Shown here: positions 8,637 to 26,402 of the stretch, piece after piece
Layout: each line of letters begins with the position of its first letter
Numbering within the stretch: the stretch's first letter is position 1
Source of the DNA: an uncultured Chloroflexaceae bacterium
GTDB lineage: Bacteria > Chloroflexota > Chloroflexia > Chloroflexales > Chloroflexaceae
DNA length: 64,000 nucleotides
Assembly: GCA_964575355.1 (NCBI GenBank)
Contig: CAZNQP010000007.1
Span: 5,038-69,037, forward strand
Reading direction: 5' to 3'
Notes under the pieces: generated by a model
Told to the model about the DNA's origin: nothing
Databases searched by the model: none
The model's input: only the letters and a program-made list of their open reading frames with translations
Made by a program: the position numbers and the translations under genes

Positions 8637-9257
8637 ATGTCACGCTATCGCGGACCAGTCGGCAAAGTGAGTCGGCGACTTGGGCTAGGCATCTCGGAGA
8701 AGGGGCAACGGGTATTGAACCGCCGCCCCACCCCGCCGGGGCAGCACGGACCAAACGCCCGTCGGCGGCAGGTTTCGGACTACGGGCTACAACTGCTGGA
8801 AAAGCAGAAAGCCCGCTATATGTATGGGGTACACGAGCGGCAATTCCGGCGGCTGTTTGCAAAAGCGAACCGCCAAGGTGGTGTCACAGGCGACAACCTG
8901 ATGAGCCTGCTCGAACGGCGGCTCGATAACACGGTGTATCGCTTGGGGTTGGCTGCCACACGCGCCCAAGCACGCCAGATTGTCAACCACGGGCACATTA
9001 CGATCAATGGGCGCAAGACGAACATCCCATCCTTCACCGTGCGCGTCGGCGACAAAATCGGTGTGCGTGAGCAGAGCCGCAGTCGTACCTACTTCAAGAA
9101 CTTGGTAGACAGCGGCGACCTCGCGCGGGCAAGCACCCCCGACTGGCTGTTTTTCAATGCCAGTGAAATGGTGGGCGATGTGGTAGCCCTGCCGAACCGT
9201 GACGATGCCGAAGCCGGCATTAACGAGCAGTTGATTGTTGAATATTATAGCCGCTAG
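8637..9257 (+). CDS. rpsD: 30S ribosomal protein S4
   Basis: MSRYRGP..K.SRRLG...EKQK.RY.YGV.ERQF, S4 domain LDN.VYRLG.A.TR.QARQ.V.HGHI..NG. Confidence 0.96.
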
Positions 9258-9362
9258 GCTGGGGCAGCACCCCTGCCGGGCGGGCAGCCACTGGCACACC
9301 AACCGCATCGCGGGCAGTCGGTGTGCAGGCTGCATTACCGTGATAGATAAAGGAGGCGATCC

Positions 9363-10475
9363 GTGCTAGACATCGCCATGCCAAAGATTGATGTTGTACA
9401 GGCGGCGGAAAACTATGGGCGGTTCAAAATCGAACCGCTTGATCCGGGCTATGGGCACACACTGGGCAACGCCCTGCGGCGCGTGCTCCTGTCGTCCATT
9501 CCGGGGTCAGCCATTACGAAAATCAAAATAGATACCGTCTTTCACGAGTTCTCGACCATTGAGGGGGTGCGGGAGGATGTGACGGAGATTGTGCTGAATG
9601 TCAAGGGCATTCGCCTGCGCTCGTATGCCGAGCGTCCCGTCAAAGTCACGCTATCGCGCACAGGTCCCGGTATGGTGCGGGCAGGCGATGCCGAACTGCC
9701 CAGCAACGTTGAGTTGGCAAACCCCGACCATTACATCTGTACGCTCGACTCGTCGTTTGCCCAGATTGAAATGGAGATGACGGTTGAGCGCGGGCGGGGC
9801 TATGTCCCCGCCGACCAGCGCGACGCGCTACCGATTGGCGAAATCCCGGTGGATGCCATCTTTACGCCCATCCCGCGTGTCAACTATGTGGTCGAAAACA
9901 CCCGCATCGGGCAGGTGACGGACTATGACCGCCTGCTGCTGGAAGTGTGGACCGACGGGACGGTGAAGCCGGGCGATGCCCTGAGCCACGCCGCGCAGGT
10001 GCTGGTGCAATACTATCAGGCAATCGCCGATTTCAACCGCATTGCGGTGGAGCCGGAACTGCCGACGGGTACGCCCGCAGGCTTGACCATCCCGCCCGAT
10101 GTGTACGATACCCCCATCGAAGACCTTGAGCTTTCGACGCGCACCTACAACTGCCTCAAGCGTGCCGACATTACGCGCATCGGGCAGGTCTTGCAGATGG
10201 ACGAAAAAGCATTGCTGTCGGTGCGGAACCTTGGGCAGAAGAGCATGGAAGAAATCCGTGACAAACTGGTCGAGCGGGGGTATATCAATGCACCGGATGG
10301 CGAGGCAAGCGACACTACCGACACCACCGACACCACCGACACCACCGACACCACCGACACCACCGACACTACCGATACTACCGACACTACCGAGGAGCGC
10401 GACACTGACACCACCACCGATGACCCTGTCGCCACCAAAGTCGAAGTCGCGGACGAAGCAGTAACACAAGAGTAG
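9363..10475 (+). CDS. rpoA: DNA-directed RNA polymerase subunit alpha with acidic D/T-repeat tail
   Basis: GTG 7 nt after AGGAGG. GHTLGNALRRVLLSS and alpha-CTD LELSTRTYNCLKRA.I..IG.L. About 55 extra C-terminal residues. Confidence 0.95.
   Translation: MLDIAMPKIDVVQAAENYGRFKIEPLDPGYGHTLGNALRRVLLSSIPGSAITKIKIDTVFHEFSTIEGVREDVTEIVLNVKGIRLRSYAERPVKVTLSRTGPGMVRAGDAELPSNVELANPDHYICTLDSSFAQIEMEMTVERGRGYVPADQRDALPIGEIPVDAIFTPIPRVNYVVENTRIGQVTDYDRLLLEVWTDGTVKPGDALSHAAQVLVQYYQAIADFNRIAVEPELPTGTPAGLTIPPDVYDTPIEDLELSTRTYNCLKRADITRIGQVLQMDEKALLSVRNLGQKSMEEIRDKLVERGYINAPDGEASDTTDTTDTTDTTDTTDTTDTTDTTDTTEERDTDTTTDDPVATKVEVADEAVTQE
10321..10401 (+). repeat. 9-bp microsatellite, 9 units (GAC ACY ACC = Asp-Thr-Thr) within rpoA
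   Basis: Units gacactacc / gacaccacc x5 / gacactacc / gatactacc / gacactacc, read directly. Confidence 0.95.
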
Positions 10476-16650: not shown

Positions 16651-18168
16651 CTATCGTGCTTTAACGATTATGGACGCAAGCGCACGCCCCGACAGCAACG
16701 CCAGCGGAATACCGCCGCCGGGGTGGGTGCCGCCGCCCACAAAATAGAGGTTGGCAACGTCGCGGGCACGCTGCGGCGGGCGCAAAAACGCGGCAAAGCG
16801 GTTGTTCGATGCCAGCCCATAGATCGCCCCCGCCGACGCGTTGTAGCGCGTGGCAAGGTCAGCAGGGGTTCGGATGACCTCATGCGTGATATGCTGGCGC
16901 AGGTCGTGTAGCCCCATCTGCTCGAGGCGGCGCAGCACCACATCCCGATAGGCGGGAGCTTCGCGCTCCCAGTTGACCCGCCCGTTCAGGGCGGGGGCAT
17001 TCACCAGCACAAACATATTCATGTGTCCCGGCGGGGCGTGCTCCGCATCGGTGATGGACGAGGTACACACATAGATTGTCGGGTTGGCGGCGGGCACACC
17101 GTGCGCGAACAGCGCGGCAAACTCGCCGGGGTAGTCGCGGCTGAAAAAAATGCTGTGGTGCGCCAATTGCTCATACTGGCGAGCTACCCCTAGCAGCAGC
17201 ACAAAGCCACTACACGACGGCTCTTGCTGCACCAGCCGCCGCGCCCACGGCTGCGGGGTGGGCAACATCTGCTCGTACACATAGCGCGGGTCGGCATTGG
17301 CAACCACCACATCGGCAACGTGGTGCTGCCCCGCCACCGTGACAGCACCCGTCACGCGCCCCTGCTGCTGCACCAGTTGCTGCACCGGGGTATTCAGTTG
17401 CACGTCCACACCGAGGTCGCCCGCGAGTTGTTGCAACGCCTCAGCTAGGCGATACATACCGCCCCGGATGTACCACCCGCCCGTCGCAAACTCGATGAAG
17501 GCAATCACATTGAAGGTCGCCGGGGTCAGGTAGGGCGACGAGCCATTGTAGGTAGCGTAGCGGTTGAAGACCTGCCGCAGGTAGGGGCTGGTAAAGAAGC
17601 TCTGCACCGCTTGATCGAGCGTGCGGAAGGCATCAATACGCGGACCGTCGCGCATGAGGCGCGGGTTGAACATGCTGCGGAACCCGGCGAACGGCTGGTA
17701 CAGAAATGGCTCGCTCACACTGTCGTATATCTGGCTGGCATACGCAAGAAAGCGCAGCATCCCGTTCACATCGGCGGGGCTGATGCGCTCGATCTCGTGT
17801 AGCAGGCGCGGCAGGCTCTGCCATGCGTCAAACTGCGTCCCATCGTCCCAGAAGTAGCGGCAAGTCGGCTCGACAGGCACAATGTCGAGGTAGTCGTCGG
17901 CATTGCGCCCCGCCAGCGCGAACAGGTCGCGCACAACCCACGGCATCGTAAAGAGTGACGGACCGGTATCGTAGGTATAGCCTGCCTGCTGGTAGATGTC
18001 GAGCTTGCCACCGACGCGCTCATTCTTTTCGAGCACGGTAACGGCATAGCCCGCCACCGCAAGATGGATCGCCGCCGACAAGCCACCCAACCCTGCCCCG
18101 ATGACAAGGGCAGTAGGACGGGCGGGGGGCGTGTACGCACCACGGGGGGGGGCGTGTGTTTCAATCAC
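16651..18168 (-). CDS. phytoene desaturase (CrtI) family FAD-dependent oxidoreductase
   Basis: GTG after AGGAG. N-terminal Rossmann motif VIGAGLGGLSAAIHLA..G..V.VLEKN...GGK. 505 aa. C-terminal FVGGGTHPGGG. Confidence 0.88.
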   Translation of the reverse strand: MIETHAPPRGAYTPPARPTALVIGAGLGGLSAAIHLAVAGYAVTVLEKNERVGGKLDIYQQAGYTYDTGPSLFTMPWVVRDLFALAGRNADDYLDIVPVEPTCRYFWDDGTQFDAWQSLPRLLHEIERISPADVNGMLRFLAYASQIYDSVSEPFLYQPFAGFRSMFNPRLMRDGPRIDAFRTLDQAVQSFFTSPYLRQVFNRYATYNGSSPYLTPATFNVIAFIEFATGGWYIRGGMYRLAEALQQLAGDLGVDVQLNTPVQQLVQQQGRVTGAVTVAGQHHVADVVVANADPRYVYEQMLPTPQPWARRLVQQEPSCSGFVLLLGVARQYEQLAHHSIFFSRDYPGEFAALFAHGVPAANPTIYVCTSSITDAEHAPPGHMNMFVLVNAPALNGRVNWEREAPAYRDVVLRRLEQMGLHDLRQHITHEVIRTPADLATRYNASAGAIYGLASNNRFAAFLRPPQRARDVANLYFVGGGTHPGGGIPLALLSGRALASIIVKAR

Positions 18169-18242: not shown

Positions 18243-18279
18243 GCAACGGGCTACCAGCCGTATCCCAGTAGCCCGTTGC
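18243..18279 (-). terminator. perfect 12-bp-stem hairpin downstream of the cpaF-like gene (no U-tract)
   Basis: GCAACGGGCTAC (18243-18254) pairs with GTAGCCCGTTGC (18268-18279), 13-nt loop. Begins 23 nt past the stop. Confidence 0.45.
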
Positions 18280-18301
18280 AGTCGGCGCGGCAAGTCTACG
18301 C

Positions 18302-19711
18302 TTAGCGTTTGCCGAGGTTCATGCCGAACACGCTCGGCGGCAACTTGAAGCCACTCGCCTCAAGCTTGTTGGTGAAACTCGGGCGCACGCCCGTCGGCCT
18401 CAGTTCGGTGATGTATTTGCCGTCAGGTCCCTTGCCCTTGATGTCGAGCAAGAAGATGTCTTGCAACACAATCGTGTTGCCTTCCATCCCCTGCACCTCG
18501 GTGATGTGCGATACCTTACGGCTCCCGTCATCAAGGCGCGTCTGCTGCACAATCAGGTGGATTGCCGAAGCAATCTGCTGCCGGATAACATCAAGCGGTA
18601 TATCCATCCCTGCCATCATAGACATTGTTTCAAGGCGGGCAAGTGCGTCGCGTGGCGTGTTGGCGTGCAGCGTCGTCAGCGAGCCGTCGTGCCCGGTGTT
18701 CATTGCCTGCAACATGTCGAGTGCCTCACCCGAACGACACTCGCCAACCACAATCCGCTCAGGGCGCATACGCAGCGAGTTAGTCACAAGGTCGCGGATG
18801 GCAACCTTCCCCGACCCGTCAATCTCGGCAGGCTTGGCTTCGAGGCGCACCACGTGATCCTGTGCCAATTGTAGTTCGGCACTGTCCTCAATCGTCACGA
18901 TGCGCTCACCGGGGGGCACGAAGTTCGACAGCACGTTCAGCAACGTGGTTTTCCCCGAACCCGTCCCACCCGACACCACAATGTTGAGGTGGCTCACCAC
19001 GCAGGCTTCGAGGAACTCAGCCATCTGGGGCGTGATACTGCCAAACTTGACGAGGTCGGATATTTGCAAGCGGTTCTTCGCGAACTTACGAATGGTGATG
19101 GTCGAGCCGTCAATCGCGCAGGGCGGAATGATAGCGTTGACGCGGCTCCCGTCCGGGAGGCGGGCATCCACCATGGGCCACTTGCGGTCAACGCGCCGCC
19201 CCAGCGGGCGGATGATACGGTCAATCACGCGCTGGACGTGCTCATCGTTGGCAAACCTGACATCCGATAGGGTCAGTTTCCCCTTACGCTCGACATAGAT
19301 ACGCTGAGGACCATTGACCATCACCTCCGAGACGCTGTCATCGTTGAGCAGCACCTGAATAGGACCAAAGCCCGTCAACTCGTGATAGACCATCTGGTAC
19401 AGCCGCTTGACCTCATTTTCGCTCAGGTTCATGTTAGTCTGGCGGTACAACTGGGCGAAGCGATCCTGAATCATCTTCTCCGCCTCGTCACCTTCCGGCA
19501 ACTGCCCCTGTTGCCCCACCGATGCCTGAATACGGTCGGCGATCCAGAGTGAGGCTTCCGTCATCTTGACAAGCAACTCGGGGTCAATCGCGGTGGTTTC
19601 GGTTGTGGCGGGGGCTACCGGTGCAGGGGCTGCCGCGCCGTTGCCTTCGGGGGGCATAGGCGGTGATCCCGCTTTCTTTTGCTCCTGCCCTTTATTCAGT
19701 CGCTTCAACAT
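18302..19711 (-). CDS. cpaF: CpaF/TadA-family type II/IV secretion ATPase
   Basis: Walker A GGTGSGKTT, RIVVGECRSGEALDML, His box GHDGSLTTLHAN. AAGGAG SD 8 nt upstream. Confidence 0.92.
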   Translation of the reverse strand: MLKRLNKGQEQKKAGSPPMPPEGNGAAAPAPVAPATTETTAIDPELLVKMTEASLWIADRIQASVGQQGQLPEGDEAEKMIQDRFAQLYRQTNMNLSENEVKRLYQMVYHELTGFGPIQVLLNDDSVSEVMVNGPQRIYVERKGKLTLSDVRFANDEHVQRVIDRIIRPLGRRVDRKWPMVDARLPDGSRVNAIIPPCAIDGSTITIRKFAKNRLQISDLVKFGSITPQMAEFLEACVVSHLNIVVSGGTGSGKTTLLNVLSNFVPPGERIVTIEDSAELQLAQDHVVRLEAKPAEIDGSGKVAIRDLVTNSLRMRPERIVVGECRSGEALDMLQAMNTGHDGSLTTLHANTPRDALARLETMSMMAGMDIPLDVIRQQIASAIHLIVQQTRLDDGSRKVSHITEVQGMEGNTIVLQDIFLLDIKGKGPDGKYITELRPTGVRPSFTNKLEASGFKLPPSVFGMNLGKR

Positions 19712-19748
19712 AGGCTATCTCCTTATGGGGTTTGGTCATGTCAGGGTC

Positions 19749-21176
19749 TCACGACAGCTTGACAAAGTAGGCTTCACACGCCCGGTCAAGCAGGGGGCGG
19801 CTCATCTCCGGGGTAATCCCGCGATACTTCGCTTCGTCGAGTATCTGGTCGCACAGGTCACGCGGGTGGCACGCCCGCAGGTCGCGCCCCGTCTTCATGT
19901 AATGCTCCTGAATGAGGTAGCGCAGACCTTCGTCACTATACGGGATGTTCTTCACTTTCGCAACAATCTTGAAGATTTCACGAAACTCGTTGGGCGAGGG
20001 GTTGGGCACCTCGATCTTGTGCCGGATACGTCGCAAGAACGCATCGTCTACTAAGTCGCTGGGGGATAGGTTGGTCGAGATGATGATGAGCACATCGAAC
20101 GGCACCGAAATCTTCTTGCCGTTTTGCAGGGCAAGGTAGTCTTCGCGCTTCTCCAGCGGCACGATCCAGCGGTTGAGCAGGTCTTGTGGGCGGCACTGCT
20201 GCCGTCCGAAGTCGTCAATCAGGAACAGCCCACCGTTGGCCTTCATCTGAAAGGGAGCTTCGTACACCTTTGAGATGGGGTCGAAGATCAACTCTAGTTG
20301 CTCAAGAATAAGCTCGCCCCCCACCACCACGCGCGGACGCTGAATGACCACCCAGCGAGCATCCGGAATATCGGTGCTTTGGGCGGTCGCGTTCCCAAAG
20401 GGGTCGCTCTCCTCTGAGACGGCCTTATTCTCTTTCAGCACCTTGTGGTTGAGCGGGTCGAACAACTTGATGACCTGCCCATCAATCTCGATGGCATATG
20501 GCACGATGATTGCGCCGCCCAACATTGCCGCCAGTCCGTCGGCGATGGTCGTCTTGCCGTTGCCCGGCGGACCGTACAGGAACAACGAACGCGCCGAGTT
20601 TGCCGCCGGACCAATGCGGTCGAGCATACGCTCGCTGATGACGATGTGACTAAACGCCTGCCGGATGGTCGGCTTGTCAACCACAAGGTCTTTGATGGTC
20701 TGGGCTTTCGTCATTTCGATATACTGGTGGAACGGTACGGGTGCCGGACCGGCATACAGTGTGCGGTCGAGCACCTCATTGACCTTGGCACGCCCCTTGC
20801 CCGCAATGATGTACTGATAGTTGCGCGGACCACCGAAGCCACCCGCGTCAGCCCCGATAATGTCTATGTATTCTTCCAGTTTGAGGAAGTCAAGGATTTT
20901 GTCGAGCACATTGAGAAACGGCAGGCGCGTCATCTCTTCCAGCCGTTGCCCGGTAATGTTCCCACTGAAGTAGATCACCTTCAACACAAGGTCGTTGAGA
21001 AACCCGACATTCAGCCCGGTTTCTTCTATCGAGCGGGGTTGCGACGGGATTGCCACCGACAGTTGCCGATTCTGGTTGGCGGGCGGTGAGGGTGCCGCCG
21101 GGAGCGGCGGGGCGGCAGGTTGTCCTTGCGCCGGTTGGGCACCCGCAGGGACAAATGGATTCAAGCGCGAACTCAT
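19749..21176 (-). CDS. classical AAA+ ATPase with unassigned ~190-aa N-terminal domain
   Basis: GPPGNGKTT (Walker A), LFLIDDFGRQ (Walker B), IIISTN (sensor 1), DDAFLRRIRHKIEV (Arg finger region). P/A/Q-rich N-terminus. Confidence 0.88.
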   Translation of the reverse strand: MSSRLNPFVPAGAQPAQGQPAAPPLPAAPSPPANQNRQLSVAIPSQPRSIEETGLNVGFLNDLVLKVIYFSGNITGQRLEEMTRLPFLNVLDKILDFLKLEEYIDIIGADAGGFGGPRNYQYIIAGKGRAKVNEVLDRTLYAGPAPVPFHQYIEMTKAQTIKDLVVDKPTIRQAFSHIVISERMLDRIGPAANSARSLFLYGPPGNGKTTIADGLAAMLGGAIIVPYAIEIDGQVIKLFDPLNHKVLKENKAVSEESDPFGNATAQSTDIPDARWVVIQRPRVVVGGELILEQLELIFDPISKVYEAPFQMKANGGLFLIDDFGRQQCRPQDLLNRWIVPLEKREDYLALQNGKKISVPFDVLIIISTNLSPSDLVDDAFLRRIRHKIEVPNPSPNEFREIFKIVAKVKNIPYSDEGLRYLIQEHYMKTGRDLRACHPRDLCDQILDEAKYRGITPEMSRPLLDRACEAYFVKLS

Positions 21177-21278
21177 ACTTACTCCTCGGCTTGTGTGACA
21201 TCTCGCTCAAGGTACGGTACGCAACGATACGCAGCAGAGGCATTGACAAGCAGGCGACTGCGCCGCCGCGACAGCTTC

Positions 21279-21307
21279 AGTATACCCTGTGGCTTGCAAT
21301 CGTGCAA
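21279..21307 (-). promoter_or_regulatory. sigma70-type promoter TTGCAC-17-TATACT for the AAA+/cpaF operon
   Basis: Minus strand reads TTGCAC gattgcaagccacaggg TATACT, in the 147-bp spacer after the RluA-family gene. Confidence 0.55.
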
Positions 21308-21323
21308 TAGTACCAACGTTATA

Positions 21324-22331
21324 CTAGTGTGGTAGCCACGTCTGCCATGCGGCACCCGCCCCACCAAGCACCGCCTGCATGTCGGGCGGCGGTGGCGCGA
21401 GCAGCACGGTGGGCTGTGCGGTGACGGGGTGGGGTAGTGCCATACGGACGGCGTGCAGCATCTGGCGTGGCACCGCCTGCCCGCGCCACGCGGGTTGCCC
21501 GCCATACTTCGCATCGCCCAGCAGGGGGTACCCGATGTGCGCGGCATGCAGGCGTATCTGGTGGGTGCGCCCAGTGTGCAGCGTCGCCAGCAACACCGCC
21601 GCCCCTGCCAGCCGTTGCACCACCACGAACGTCGTGTGGGCAAACCGCACGCGACTGCCGTTCGGCAGTGCCATGCCCACCTCATCGGTGCGGTACAGCC
21701 GCCAGCGTCCGCGTGCGCCGCGCCCGTGCCCAGTCTGCACATCATAGCTCGCAGCGGGGGGATCGCCGCCTACAAGACACAGGTAATGCTTGACCACCGC
21801 GCCCGTATTGAACAGCAGTTGCATCGCCCCGTTGAGGGCAGGGTCAAGCGTACAGAGTAGCACCCCCGACGTGTCGCGGTCAAGCTGGTGGGTTAGGTGC
21901 AACGGCGGCGGCGACGGCTCGGTAGCGTGCAGCCACGCAGTCAGCGCAACCCGCAGGTTGCCGTGGACATCCCATGGGGTGGGGGTACTGTACCAGCCGG
22001 GTTGCTTGTTCACTGCTAGCAACCACGGGTCGCGGTAGCATAGATCGGCAGCCGTGATGGTAATGTGACGGTACTGCTGGTCGGGCGGGCGGTGCAGCAC
22101 GAGTTGGTCGCCTGCTGCGAGCGGCTGTGTGTAGGCAACGGGCAACACGCGCCGCCCGTTGCACCACACCCCCTGATGCTGCAACACGGCGGCGGCGGCA
22201 ACCGCCCCTAGCCGTGCCACCACCACCGCTCGCAACGACGCGCCCGCCTGCTGTGCGTCTATCGTGAGCTGAATATAGCTGTCGTAGCTTTCGTACGCCG
22301 CCGAGGGTTGCGCCGTGTCATTGTCGCCCAT
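21324..22331 (-). CDS. RluA-family pseudouridine synthase with N-terminal S4-like domain
   Basis: Catalytic motif HQLDRDTSGVLL and HTGRTHQIR. Confidence 0.9.
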   Translation of the reverse strand: MGDNDTAQPSAAYESYDSYIQLTIDAQQAGASLRAVVVARLGAVAAAAVLQHQGVWCNGRRVLPVAYTQPLAAGDQLVLHRPPDQQYRHITITAADLCYRDPWLLAVNKQPGWYSTPTPWDVHGNLRVALTAWLHATEPSPPPLHLTHQLDRDTSGVLLCTLDPALNGAMQLLFNTGAVVKHYLCLVGGDPPAASYDVQTGHGRGARGRWRLYRTDEVGMALPNGSRVRFAHTTFVVVQRLAGAAVLLATLHTGRTHQIRLHAAHIGYPLLGDAKYGGQPAWRGQAVPRQMLHAVRMALPHPVTAQPTVLLAPPPPDMQAVLGGAGAAWQTWLPH

Positions 22332-23883: not shown

Positions 23884-25266
23884 ATGGCAAAAACACGAAC
23901 CCATTTTATCTGTCAACAATGCGGGGCGCGGTTTGCGCGCTGGCAGGGGCGGTGCTCGGAATGTGGCACATGGGACAGCCTCGTCGAAGAAGTTATTGCG
24001 CTGCGCGGCGGTACCGCCGCCCCCACGACCACCAGCATTGAGCAACCCGTTGCCTTACGCAACGTCTCGTCCTCCGAAGATGCCCGCCTCCCCGTGTTTA
24101 GTAGCGAACTGGCACGAGTGCTCGGCGGCGGGGTTGTCCCCGGCTCGGTGGTACTCATTGGCGGCGACCCCGGCATCGGCAAGTCCACGCTCCTCACCCA
24201 GATGGGCGCGGTCTTCGCGCAGCAGGTGGGCAAAACGCTGTACATCAGTGCCGAGGAGTCCGCCCGCCAAATCAAACTGCGGGCGCAACGACTCAACCTC
24301 GACCCTGCCGACCTGTACATCTCCTCGGAAACCTCGCTCGACCTGATTGTGCAGCAGGTGCAACAACTCGAACCGCACCTCGTCATTGTCGACTCGATCC
24401 AGACGGTCTACCTTGAAAGCATCAGTTCGGCGGCAGGCAGCGTCAGTCAGGTGCGCGAGTGTGCGCTCCGCCTGATGCAACTTGCCAAGCACAGCGGCAT
24501 CCCGGTCTTTCTGGTGGGGCATGTCACGAAAGAGGGCGCAATCGCCGGACCGCGTGTGCTCGAACATATCGTGGATGCGGTGCTCTACCTCGAGGGCGAC
24601 CGCTTTCACCACTACCGCCTGCTACGCGGGGTCAAAAACCGCTTTGGCAGCACCAACGAGGTGGGCGTATTCGAGATGACGCAGGACGGTATGCGCGAAG
24701 TCGCCAACCCGTCGCAGGCGTTCATTGCGGAGCGGAGTGCAGGCTCGCCCGGCTCGATGGTGGCGGTGATGCTCGAAGGGACGCGCCCGCTACTGGTGGA
24801 GGTACAAGCCCTCACGTCGTATACCAGCAGTGCCCAGCCACGCCGCACCGCCAACGGCTTCGACCCCAACCGCCTGCTCATGCTGGTGGCGGTGCTCTCG
24901 AAGCGTGTGGGGCTGACGCTTTATAACCAAGATATTTATGTCAACATTGTGGGCGGGCTACGCATTGGCGAGCCTGCCGCTGACCTCGCGGTTGCGCTGG
25001 CAATTGCCTCGTCCTTCCGTAACGCCCGCATCGAGCCGACACTGGTGTGTATAGGCGAGGTGGGGCTGTCGGGCGAGTTACGGAGCGTCAGCCAACTTGA
25101 CCAACGGCTAGGCGAAGCTGCCCGGCTTGGCTTTACGCAGGCATTGGTGCCGATCCGTGACAAACTCCCGCACGTGGATGGACTGACGGTCGTTGCAGTC
25201 CGTTCACTCGCCGATGTGGTCGCGCAGGTGCTGCGGCAGACGCAACCGGAAAGTTCAGCCTCATGA
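23884..25266 (+). CDS. radA: DNA repair protein RadA/Sms
   Basis: Zinc finger CQQCG...CSECG, Walker A GGDPGIGKST, KNRFG motif, Lon-like C-terminal domain. Confidence 0.96.
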   Translation: MAKTRTHFICQQCGARFARWQGRCSECGTWDSLVEEVIALRGGTAAPTTTSIEQPVALRNVSSSEDARLPVFSSELARVLGGGVVPGSVVLIGGDPGIGKSTLLTQMGAVFAQQVGKTLYISAEESARQIKLRAQRLNLDPADLYISSETSLDLIVQQVQQLEPHLVIVDSIQTVYLESISSAAGSVSQVRECALRLMQLAKHSGIPVFLVGHVTKEGAIAGPRVLEHIVDAVLYLEGDRFHHYRLLRGVKNRFGSTNEVGVFEMTQDGMREVANPSQAFIAERSAGSPGSMVAVMLEGTRPLLVEVQALTSYTSSAQPRRTANGFDPNRLLMLVAVLSKRVGLTLYNQDIYVNIVGGLRIGEPAADLAVALAIASSFRNARIEPTLVCIGEVGLSGELRSVSQLDQRLGEAARLGFTQALVPIRDKLPHVDGLTVVAVRSLADVVAQVLRQTQPESSAS

Positions 25267-26402
25267 CCATGAGTACGCGCCTTTTCATCCGGCTGGTAGG
25301 CATGCTCCTGCTTGGCTATGCCGGGGGCTGGGTCGGCACTGCCCTCGCTGGCAGTACCATCACCGCTACCGAACAGCAAGCCATCTGGTTGCTCATTCTG
25401 TCTGGGGCGGGACTCGGGTTGATCGTTGCACCGCGCCTCACCATCGAGCCACTTGACACCCTGCTCCAGCGTATCCGGCAGATGTCGCTGATTGACTTTT
25501 TCTTTACCGTGGGCGGCGGCTTCGGCGGCTTGCTCTTCGCGGTGCTGTGGGCGGTGCCGCTCGCGCTGTTGCCGCCCCCGCTGAACCAGTTTCTGCCGCT
25601 GGTTGTCACGGCGGCGTGTGTGTATGTCGGGGCGGCGGCATGCTACCAGAGCCGCGAGACGCTCCACAACGGGCTGCGGGCACTGCGCCACAATGCCCAC
25701 GAACTGCTCGACGAAGCCCGCCACCTTGTGGGGCAAGAGGCGACCACTAGCAACCGCCACTTCCTGATTGACACCAGTGCCATCATTGATGGGCGCATCC
25801 TCGAAGTAGTCCAGACGGGCTTTATGGACGGGGTGCTGGTGGTGCCGCAGTTTGTGCTGCACGAATTACAAACCCTCGCCGACTCAAGCGACGACCTGCG
25901 GCGTGCCAAAGGACGACGTGGGCTTGAGTTGCTCAAGCAGATGCAAGAAGAGCCAATCTTACCCGTTGAAATCCTCGATGTCGAGGCAAGTGCTAGCAAC
26001 CGGGTAGACGACAGCTTGGTGGTGCTTGCCCGCCAGAATGACTGGGCGATCATTACCAACGACTTCAACCTCAACCGCGTCGCTGGCTTGCAGGGCGTGC
26101 AGGTACTCAGCCTCAACGCCCTGAGCGATGCCGTGCGCCCGCCCGTCGTCCAAGACCAGCAACTCAAGGTGCTGATACGCAACGAGGGCAACACGCGCCA
26201 GCAAGGAGTAGGCTACCTCGAAGATGGCACGCCCGTTGTGGTGGAAGAAGCCCGGAGCCTGATCGGGCAGACGGTGGACGTGGTTGTGACGCGCCTGTTG
26301 CAAACCCAGAGCGGACGGCTCGTGTTTGCCCAACTTGATGACGGCAGTCCGCCGGTCTATCGCGGCAGCGACAGCGGGCGTTCGTCGGCACAGGGGGGCT
26401 AG
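25263..26402 (+). CDS. membrane-anchored PIN/TRAM domain protein (YacL-like)
   Basis: ATGA overlap with radA. 3-4 N-terminal TM helices, PIN core ([13 protein letters not shown]...TNDFNL), C-terminal TRAM-like beta domain. radA-yacL synteny as in Firmicutes. Confidence 0.85.

Follow-up and report, generated by a model that had tools for sequence, protein, structure and literature searches.

The window analyzed here is a 64,000-nucleotide stretch of DNA from an uncultured Chloroflexaceae bacterium (contig C7, positions 5038-69037, in an assembly of 3.7 Mb that is 96% complete). Within it, two intact open reading frames (ORFs) lie one behind the other on the minus strand, encoding an AAA+ ATPase with a winged helix-turn-helix (wHTH) domain and, downstream of it, a secretion ATPase of the CpaF/TadA family, here termed CpaF2. 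The two genes are a conserved unit, and the finding amounts to a Tad pilus system enlarged by two conserved parts that are as yet uncharacterized. The pair is probably an accessory module serving a Tad (type IVc) pilus machine that is encoded elsewhere in the genome, to which it would contribute an alternative motor and an AAA+ regulator. A role in trans is favored because CpaF2 is a paralog of the CpaF of the Tad locus, the genome has a single TadB/TadC platform, relatives of the AAA+ protein occur within complete Tad loci of other phyla, and the AAA+ gene co-occurs with cpaF. The original prediction, made from the sequence of the window alone, had called the pair autonomous, a description that these observations do not support, nor does the near confinement of the AAA+ family, within Chloroflexota, to genomes that carry CpaF. 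The two genes are as follows:

19749-21176, minus strand: wHTH-AAA+ ATPase gene, 475 amino acids (aa), recognized from the ORF, an AlphaFold2 model, Foldseek and invariant residues
18302-19711, minus strand: CpaF2 gene, CpaF/TadA-family ATPase, 469 aa, recognized from PF00437, sequence motifs and a phylogenetic tree

Current descriptions give Tad pili a single motor, and the pair offers candidates for a second, dedicated motor and for an ATPase with a regulatory or exchange role, which bears on the switching between Tad extension and retraction and on the motor behind surface motility in filamentous Chloroflexota. The prediction had also held the architecture to be undescribed, in agreement with the searchable literature, where no paper on such a pairing, no AAA+ accessory gene of Tad loci and no conserved second CpaF in Chloroflexota were found, an absence that is not proof.

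CpaF2 and the Tad locus of the same genome

CpaF2 matches the T2SSE family PF00437 with an E-value of 1.4e-68 (231.7 bits against a cut-off of 24.9), and the CpaF hallmarks named in the original prediction are all present: the Walker A motif GGTGSGKTT, RIVVGECRSGEALDML, and GHDGSLTTLHAN. The Asp box (T)IEDSAEL, the Walker B/catalytic Glu segment (RI)VVGECR and the His box, which corresponds to the last of these hallmarks, are intact and align with those of Tad-locus and outgroup CpaF proteins. CpaF2 therefore belongs to the same family as the CpaF/TadA ATPases of Tad (type IVc, Flp) pili, e.g., Caulobacter crescentus CpaF and Aggregatibacter TadA, with which it shares the four ATPase boxes. 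It differs from them in being encoded away from cpaE, tadB and tadC and always behind a wHTH-AAA+ gene, and in belonging to a clade of its own, in which R176 and D298 are fixed; the co-localization with TadB/TadC platform genes that is characteristic of CpaF/TadA is lacking, as there is no T2SSF gene on C7. The best NCBIfam match is TIGR03819, the TadA-family conjugal-transfer-associated ATPases, at 330 bits and hence below the cut-off of 373.15. Like CpaF2, the TIGR03819 proteins are orphan TadA-like ATPases found outside classical Tad operons, but CpaF2 scores below the threshold and has no helicase neighbor. FlaI is also among the NCBIfam matches, the GspE models score far below their cut-offs, and the score against the PilT family (TIGR01420) is 47.1 bits against a cut-off of 319.1, which places CpaF2 outside that family.

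The genome encodes a second CpaF (498 aa) in a Tad locus on contig C13, to which CpaF2 is 54% identical over the full length and 62.6% identical over the core. In a maximum-likelihood tree of 65 CpaF proteins, the AAA-linked copies form one clade (36 rows, SH-aLRT 100) that includes those of two Anaerolineae-type loci (L042 and L043), 23 Tad-locus CpaFs from the same Chloroflexia genomes form a separate sister group, and Tad CpaFs from other phyla branch outside these two groups. AAA linkage requires two changes when mapped as a label onto this tree, compared with about 22 when the labels are shuffled. The separation of the AAA-linked clade and the small number of label changes indicate that CpaF2 arose through an old duplication of CpaF within Chloroflexota. 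Five positions are fixed differently between CpaF2 and the Tad-locus CpaFs, with the catalytic residues kept in both. Polarization with the outgroup identified R176 and D298 as derived in CpaF2, and the Asp-box N and the F at position 450 as derived in the Tad-locus CpaFs.

T2SSE genes number two genome-wide, one being the copy in the window and the other that on C13, and both of the T2SSF genes are on C13, so that a platform is available to CpaF2 only in trans. The C13 locus is a canonical Tad locus encoding RcpC/CpaB, a fusion of a receiver domain to CpaE/TadZ, CpaF, TadB, TadC and a DUF192 protein, along with a weakly VWA-like protein and a Kelch-repeat protein. Further pilus genes away from the window are these:

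C13, 14872 and 15552: tadE-like genes
C13, 18748: tadG-like gene
C40: A24 prepilin peptidase gene

In a whole-genome search, T2SSF, TadE, RcpC and CpaE were found on C13 and the A24 peptidase on C40, none of them on C7, which bears out the claim that the usual Tad partners are missing around the pair; Flp pilin was not searched for. Platform, CpaE and pilin-like genes are thus each present in a single set in the genome, away from the AAA-CpaF2 unit. The original prediction had allowed that a Tad locus devoid of its own ATPase might exist elsewhere and reduce CpaF2 to a relocated pilus ATPase. The locus on C13 is complete and keeps its own CpaF, and CpaF2 is therefore not such a relocated gene. 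A run of N interrupts the Tad locus at C13:~25150-25320 (L086), between the Kelch-repeat gene and rcpC.

Beside the tadE end of the locus, at C13:11563-14766, lies a block of three genes encoding an unknown protein of 214 aa, a MiaB-like protein and a TPR protein with an acidic tail. The same block precedes the AAA-CpaF2 pair in Chloroflexus-like genomes, and its location on C13 therefore points to a rearrangement in the genome of the window that left the pair intact.

Conservation of the pair and Tad linkage of the AAA+ family

When species-representative genomes were searched with the AAA+ protein as query, 80 loci were recovered, all from Chloroflexota. Nearly all of the Chloroflexia loci with sufficient downstream sequence have a same-strand cpaF directly downstream, whose product is 64-80% identical to CpaF2. 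The adjacency also occurs in L042 and L043 and in one more genome outside Chloroflexia (G074), and it is absent from most loci of Anaerolineae, Thermoflexia and Ardenticatenia. Whole-genome searches, which covered 61 genomes of class Chloroflexia, gave the following distribution among families:

Families f1, f2, f5 and f8: AAA-CpaF pair in all sampled genomes; second CpaF in an rcpC-cpaE-cpaF-tadB-tadC arrangement in all
Families f4 and f11: AAA and CpaF both present, unlinked; the lone CpaF detected is in cpaE-cpaF-tadB-tadC (L217, L218, L221)
Families f6, f7 and f9: AAA gene absent; CpaF only
Family f10: AAA and CpaF both absent

The pair is kept despite differing flanking genes across relatives, and the conservation for which a comparison of neighborhoods had been proposed thus extends over four families of Chloroflexia and three loci or genomes beyond that class. 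Downstream of the pair in L042 lie genes for a TadE-like protein, a prepilin peptidase and a DUF192 protein. A DUF6812 (PF20660) gene of ~105-130 aa lies directly upstream of the AAA gene in L007, L010, L024, L030, L042 and L043. No DUF6812 gene was detected in the genome of the window (best E = 0.8, C13:11851-11919), and a literature search found no paper that mentions this domain. DUF6812 and the TPR/acidic-tail protein were considered as obligatory third and fourth partners and rejected: the former is missing here and the gene for the latter has moved to C13, which places both outside the minimal unit.

The family of the AAA+ protein extends well beyond the pair. An exhaustive profile-free search retrieved 780 clusters at 50% identity (E <= 1e-30), and among the 150 best matches listed, nearly all full-length proteins align from residue ~43 to 474 of the AAA+ protein, so that the wHTH domain and the AAA+ module are conserved together. 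The family has no Pfam entry of its own, no account of its function was found in the searchable literature, most members carry no Pfam domain, and the names given in source annotations are generic or wrong, e.g., "ATP-binding protein" or "DNA polymerase III delta prime". Members occur in metagenome-assembled genomes labeled Dehalococcoidia, Omnitrophota, Hinthialibacter and Acidobacteriaceae, and the proposed association with Tad pili provides a testable context for this large family in Chloroflexota, Acidobacteriota, Omnitrophota and others. Distant homologs, 35-44% identical to the AAA+ protein, are embedded in full Tad loci, often immediately behind tadC, with these gene orders:

L088 (Omnitrophota): secretin, REC-CpaE, T2SSE, T2SSF, T2SSF, OmpA, AAA
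L091: TadG, RcpC, REC-CpaE, T2SSE, T2SSF, T2SSF, A24 peptidase, VWA/FHA, AAA (4-nt overlap), LysM
L157, L161/L162, L163 and L168: (secretin), CpaE, T2SSE, T2SSF, T2SSF (tadC-like), AAA
L226: two short T2SSE, kinase, receivers, two GGDEF, AAA, CHASE2, TadE, TadE, RcpC, T2SSE, T2SSF

These Tad-embedded homologs fall into at least four branches that are far removed from one another (2.2-2.8 substitutions per site), and the linkage of the AAA+ family to Tad loci is recurrent, though not universal. In L226 (GCA_041694835.1), the AAA gene is at 9001-10359 and the short T2SSE genes upstream of it encode 356 aa each; this layout hints at control linked to cyclic di-GMP and at Tad systems with multiple ATPases.

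Co-occurrence provides a second line of evidence. In 151 Chloroflexota genomes, CpaF was found in 61 of the 64 that have the AAA gene and in 43 of the 87 that do not (Fisher p = 2.8e-10); at the level of families the counts are 18/18 and 17/24 (p = 0.014), in a comparison that is only partly corrected for shared ancestry. The three genomes with AAA and without CpaF are fragmented assemblies or have congeners in which CpaF is present. The neighbors of stand-alone AAA genes were considered as clues to function and gave no clear signal, neither in Anaerolineae, where a GDPD phosphodiesterase gene is often downstream, nor in Acidobacteriaceae, where a TPR-secretin gene lies 3-5 kb upstream and a sugar transferase gene downstream. 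A TPR-secretin (PF00263, 4e-18) upstream and a Bac_transf sugar transferase downstream were recorded at L110, L111, L113 and L115, which are metagenome contigs of the Acidobacteriaceae type, and the gene directly downstream of the AAA homolog encodes a sigma-54 activator at L135 and L137.

The AAA+ partner and the probable role of the pair

The AAA+ protein was modeled with AlphaFold2 from a 50-sequence alignment (pLDDT 89, pTM 0.85), and the model resolves the following parts:

Residues 1-43: disordered, P/A/Q-rich
Residues 57-136 (20769-21008, minus strand): wHTH domain, MarR/PadR-like in the model
Residues 149-194: linker helices
Residues ~182-475: AAA+ module
Residues ~222-316 (20229-20513, minus strand): conserved beta-rich segment inserted between Walker A and Walker B; residues 240-274 form a disordered loop

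The Walker A motif GPPGNGKT (202-209) and the Walker B motif LFLIDD (317-322) are separated by the 95-residue insert, in which P226, D240, H244, D272, R274 and P281 are invariant and G233, W275 and G286-L289 are nearly so. Residues invariant among 50 homologs include K208, D321, D322, G324, R325, Q326, the sensor-1 residue N369, R382 and R383. The Walker A Lys, the acidic pair, sensor 1, the R382/R383 pair in the place of the Arg finger, and an alpha/beta core with a helical lid are features of the AAA+ superfamily, to which the fold matches assign the protein with probability 1.0, and an HPRD motif in the lid suggests a sensor-2 Arg. The module is thus intact, as the original prediction had stated, but its designation as a classical AAA module does not hold. 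Walker B has the form hhhhDD and lacks the usual catalytic Glu; the PF00004 match covers residues 199-224 only (27.7 bits), and the Pfam and NCBIfam matches in general are local, confined to Walker A and the RR region, as are those to NSF/VCP profiles. The nearest folds, moreover, are those of LonB, BchI and MoxR-type proteins rather than Cdc48 or FtsH, and these features together rule out the classical AAA clade. DnaA, DnaC and IstB are examples of slow AAA+ proteins of a switch-like kind that have a DD Walker B motif, and its presence here therefore suggests an ATPase of this type.

Foldseek searches of the PDB returned as the best match 8p49 (Q8U0N8), an uncharacterized hexamer of Pyrococcus furiosus with a flexible N-terminal domain (E = 2e-13), which aligns over ~400 columns with TM-scores of 0.46/0.62 and is only 13-15% identical to the AAA+ partner. 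The AAA+ protein is accordingly predicted to be ring-forming, given that its closest solved relative is a hexameric ring. Next in order are the AAA+ module of archaeal LonB (4zpx, 3k1j), BchI, RuvB, and the MoxR-type proteins NorQ and CbbQ. Archaeal LonB likewise has an insertion between Walker A and Walker B; in contrast to LonB and the H2-insert ATPases (BchI and MoxR-type NorQ/CbbQ), the AAA+ partner has a DD Walker B motif, no protease domain and no VWA partner in the unit. Membership in the MoxR or Mg-chelatase families is not indicated by profile scores (bpMoxR, 18.7 against a cut-off of 27; Mg_chelatase, 19.8 against 20.3 over 29 residues). The N-terminal domain, for which the original prediction had no name and suggested structure prediction, has a MarR/PadR-like winged-helix fold: modeled alone (pLDDT 92), it gave weak matches to MarR/PadR winged helices (E ~1e-3, TM-score ~0.5). 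The position of the recognition helix is acidic or hydrophobic, and in 28 homologs the domain has a median net charge of 0 and an isoelectric point of ~6.4. The non-basic recognition-helix position and the lack of average charge hint that this winged helix may bind protein in place of DNA.

Several systems offer precedents for a motor ATPase that works with a second NTPase or a second motor, among them ArlI-ArlH in archaella, the exchange of PilB and PilT in type IVa pili, and CpaE/TadZ. In the archaellum, the TadA-related hexameric motor ArlI (FlaI) is regulated by the second P-loop NTPase ArlH (FlaH); the latter is RecA/KaiC-like, as opposed to an AAA+ protein with a winged helix, and has no homology to the AAA+ partner. 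The PilB/PilT pair likewise involves a duplicated motor ATPase, the second hexamer having no platform of its own and being encoded apart from the assembly genes. CpaF2 differs in that it is not of the PilT family and, at the level of identity given above, has diverged from its paralog far less than PilB from PilT.

With these precedents in view, the most likely mechanism is that CpaF2, as a hexamer, acts as an alternative motor by docking on the one TadB/TadC platform available, a step proposed because CpaF2 has no platform genes of its own. Retraction could be the task of this motor, or else it could drive pilus dynamics in a second mode or under a second condition. The wHTH-AAA+ ring, as a slow switch-type ATPase, would bind the CpaF-type motor through its non-basic winged helix and may regulate the assembly, loading, docking or exchange of the motor. 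The sequence of CpaF2 gives no sign of whether it would work in extension or retraction. The only pili of Chloroflexales are of the Tad type; a role in driving surface motility has been proposed for these pili, for which a retraction ATPase is not known (PMC7332563), circumstances that make a second motor attractive in this group. A 2026 review lists the gliding machinery of Chloroflexus and Herpetosiphon without a mechanism (PMC13104615), and Tad systems elsewhere are described as relying on a single, bifunctional ATPase (10.1101/616128).

A more specific proposal, speculative and in our estimation doubtful, is a two-motor Tad pilus, evolved in filamentous gliding Chloroflexia, in which the Tad-locus CpaF extends and CpaF2 retracts, or the reverse, with the hexameric wHTH-AAA+ ring using ATP to swap or gate the motors on the TadB/TadC platform; its AAA+ family would then be a general, unrecognized component of Tad systems in several phyla, comparable in function to ArlH of archaella.

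Several observations weigh against assigning the pair to the Tad machine as an accessory motor and regulator. Caulobacter CpaF is bifunctional by itself, so that a Tad machine could in principle do without a second motor. The differences fixed between CpaF2 and the Tad-locus CpaF amount to five residues, the PilT score is far below threshold, and nothing marks CpaF2 as a retraction motor. Most AAA+ family members, including those of most Anaerolineae, all sampled Acidobacteriaceae, and P0121, P0272 and P0278, are not beside Tad genes, and the function of the family is therefore not obligately tied to Tad in cis. The partial correction for ancestry also tempers the co-occurrence with CpaF. Finally, the genome encodes a second wHTH-AAA+ paralog on contig C5 that has neither T2SSE nor other pilus genes nearby. 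This gene (C5:35816-37105; L087) adjoins transporter genes, and its product is 47-49% identical and has a longer N-terminal extension; stand-alone paralogs of the C5 type occur in most Chloroflexaceae and Roseiflexaceae-like genomes.

The stand-alone occurrence of many AAA homologs is also consistent with an autonomous two-ATPase machine unrelated to pili, which would translocate nucleic acids or proteins, or perform some such task, without need of a platform, perhaps by analogy with the platform-less VirB11/TadA-like ATPases of conjugative or helicase-linked systems. The platform, pilin-like (TadE) and peptidase genes are all off C7, the pair is flanked by housekeeping genes, the best NCBIfam match of CpaF2 is to a conjugal-transfer-associated family, and a winged helix could in principle bind DNA. 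Such a machine is nevertheless unlikely: CpaF2 falls short of the TIGR03819 cut-off (330 against 373) and belongs to the sister group of the Tad-locus CpaFs, the AAA+ family recurs in full Tad loci and in Chloroflexota occurs almost only in CpaF-bearing genomes, tadE and prepilin peptidase genes adjoin the pair in L042, and the winged helix is not basic.

That last property also bears on the proposal that the AAA+ protein is an ATP-dependent transcription regulator of tad or cpaF2, with CpaF2 as a spare or condition-specific copy of the motor. The fold of residues 57-136, the labeling of one homolog as a MarR-family regulator in its source annotation, the resemblance of the DD Walker B motif to those of the switch-like proteins DnaA and DnaC, and the location of AAA genes at the edge of Tad operons would all fit a regulator of this kind. 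We regard it as quite improbable, in view of an acidic/hydrophobic recognition-helix position in a domain of net charge ~0, Foldseek E-values to MarR of only ~1e-3, and an AAA+ module that resembles LonB, MoxR and the uncharacterized hexamer rather than sigma-54 activators or initiators.

It is very improbable that a relocated pilus ATPase came by chance to lie beside an unrelated AAA+ gene, or that the two genes are an anti-phage Iet-like module: the C13 locus has its own ATPase and the pairing is conserved over four families and beyond, and the IetA/IteA matches of the AAA+ protein that suggested a defense system are weak, partial and local, limited to ~60 residues near Walker A (PADLOC, 6.4e-11; NCBIfam, 2.9e-08, 33 bits against 510), while CpaF2 has no PADLOC match and no IetS-like protease partner is present, the neighbor being CpaF2, a combination on which the Iet assignment was rejected.

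Signals and neighbors of the unit

The genes of the pair are separated by an intergenic spacer of 37 nt (19712-19748), and the ORFs, this gap and a Shine-Dalgarno sequence belonging to the cpaF gene itself read as originally predicted. The signals of the unit are as follows:

21279-21307, minus strand: putative sigma-70-like promoter, TTGCAC-17-TATACT, in the 147-nt spacer after the RluA-family gene
21182-21187, minus strand: Shine-Dalgarno sequence GAGGAG, 5 nt ahead of the ATG of the AAA+ gene
19719-19724, minus strand: Shine-Dalgarno sequence AAGGAG of CpaF2, 7 nt ahead of the ATG, within the 37-nt spacer
18243-18279, minus strand: hairpin, 22 nt past the CpaF2 stop codon, with a perfect 12-bp stem and 15 pairs on folding

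The pair had been described as bracketed by a promoter and a hairpin. The promoter sequence is present at the location claimed for it; it agrees with the consensus at only 8 of 12 positions, 3 of them among the 6 of the -35 box, and a consensus scan did not return it; it is therefore no better than chance, so that a promoter role for this putative element is unproven. The hairpin has the stem that had been claimed, a 77-nt stretch folds at -35.7 kcal/mol (z = -2.66), and a U-tract is absent. In most relatives, too, a strong hairpin follows the CpaF2 stop codon at this position, unrelated in sequence and in some cases with a U-tract, and because of this shared position the hairpin is probably the end of the transcription unit. 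In one Chloroflexia family (L198-L201), tandem GAAACGU heptamers in 4-7 copies lie just past the CpaF2 stop codon and replace the hairpin.

On either side of the unit are genes whose assignments rest on their unprofiled translations. The upstream gene (21324-22331) resembles an RluA-family pseudouridine synthase and has the HQLDRDTSGVLL motif, and the downstream gene (16651-18168) resembles a phytoene-desaturase-like oxidoreductase.

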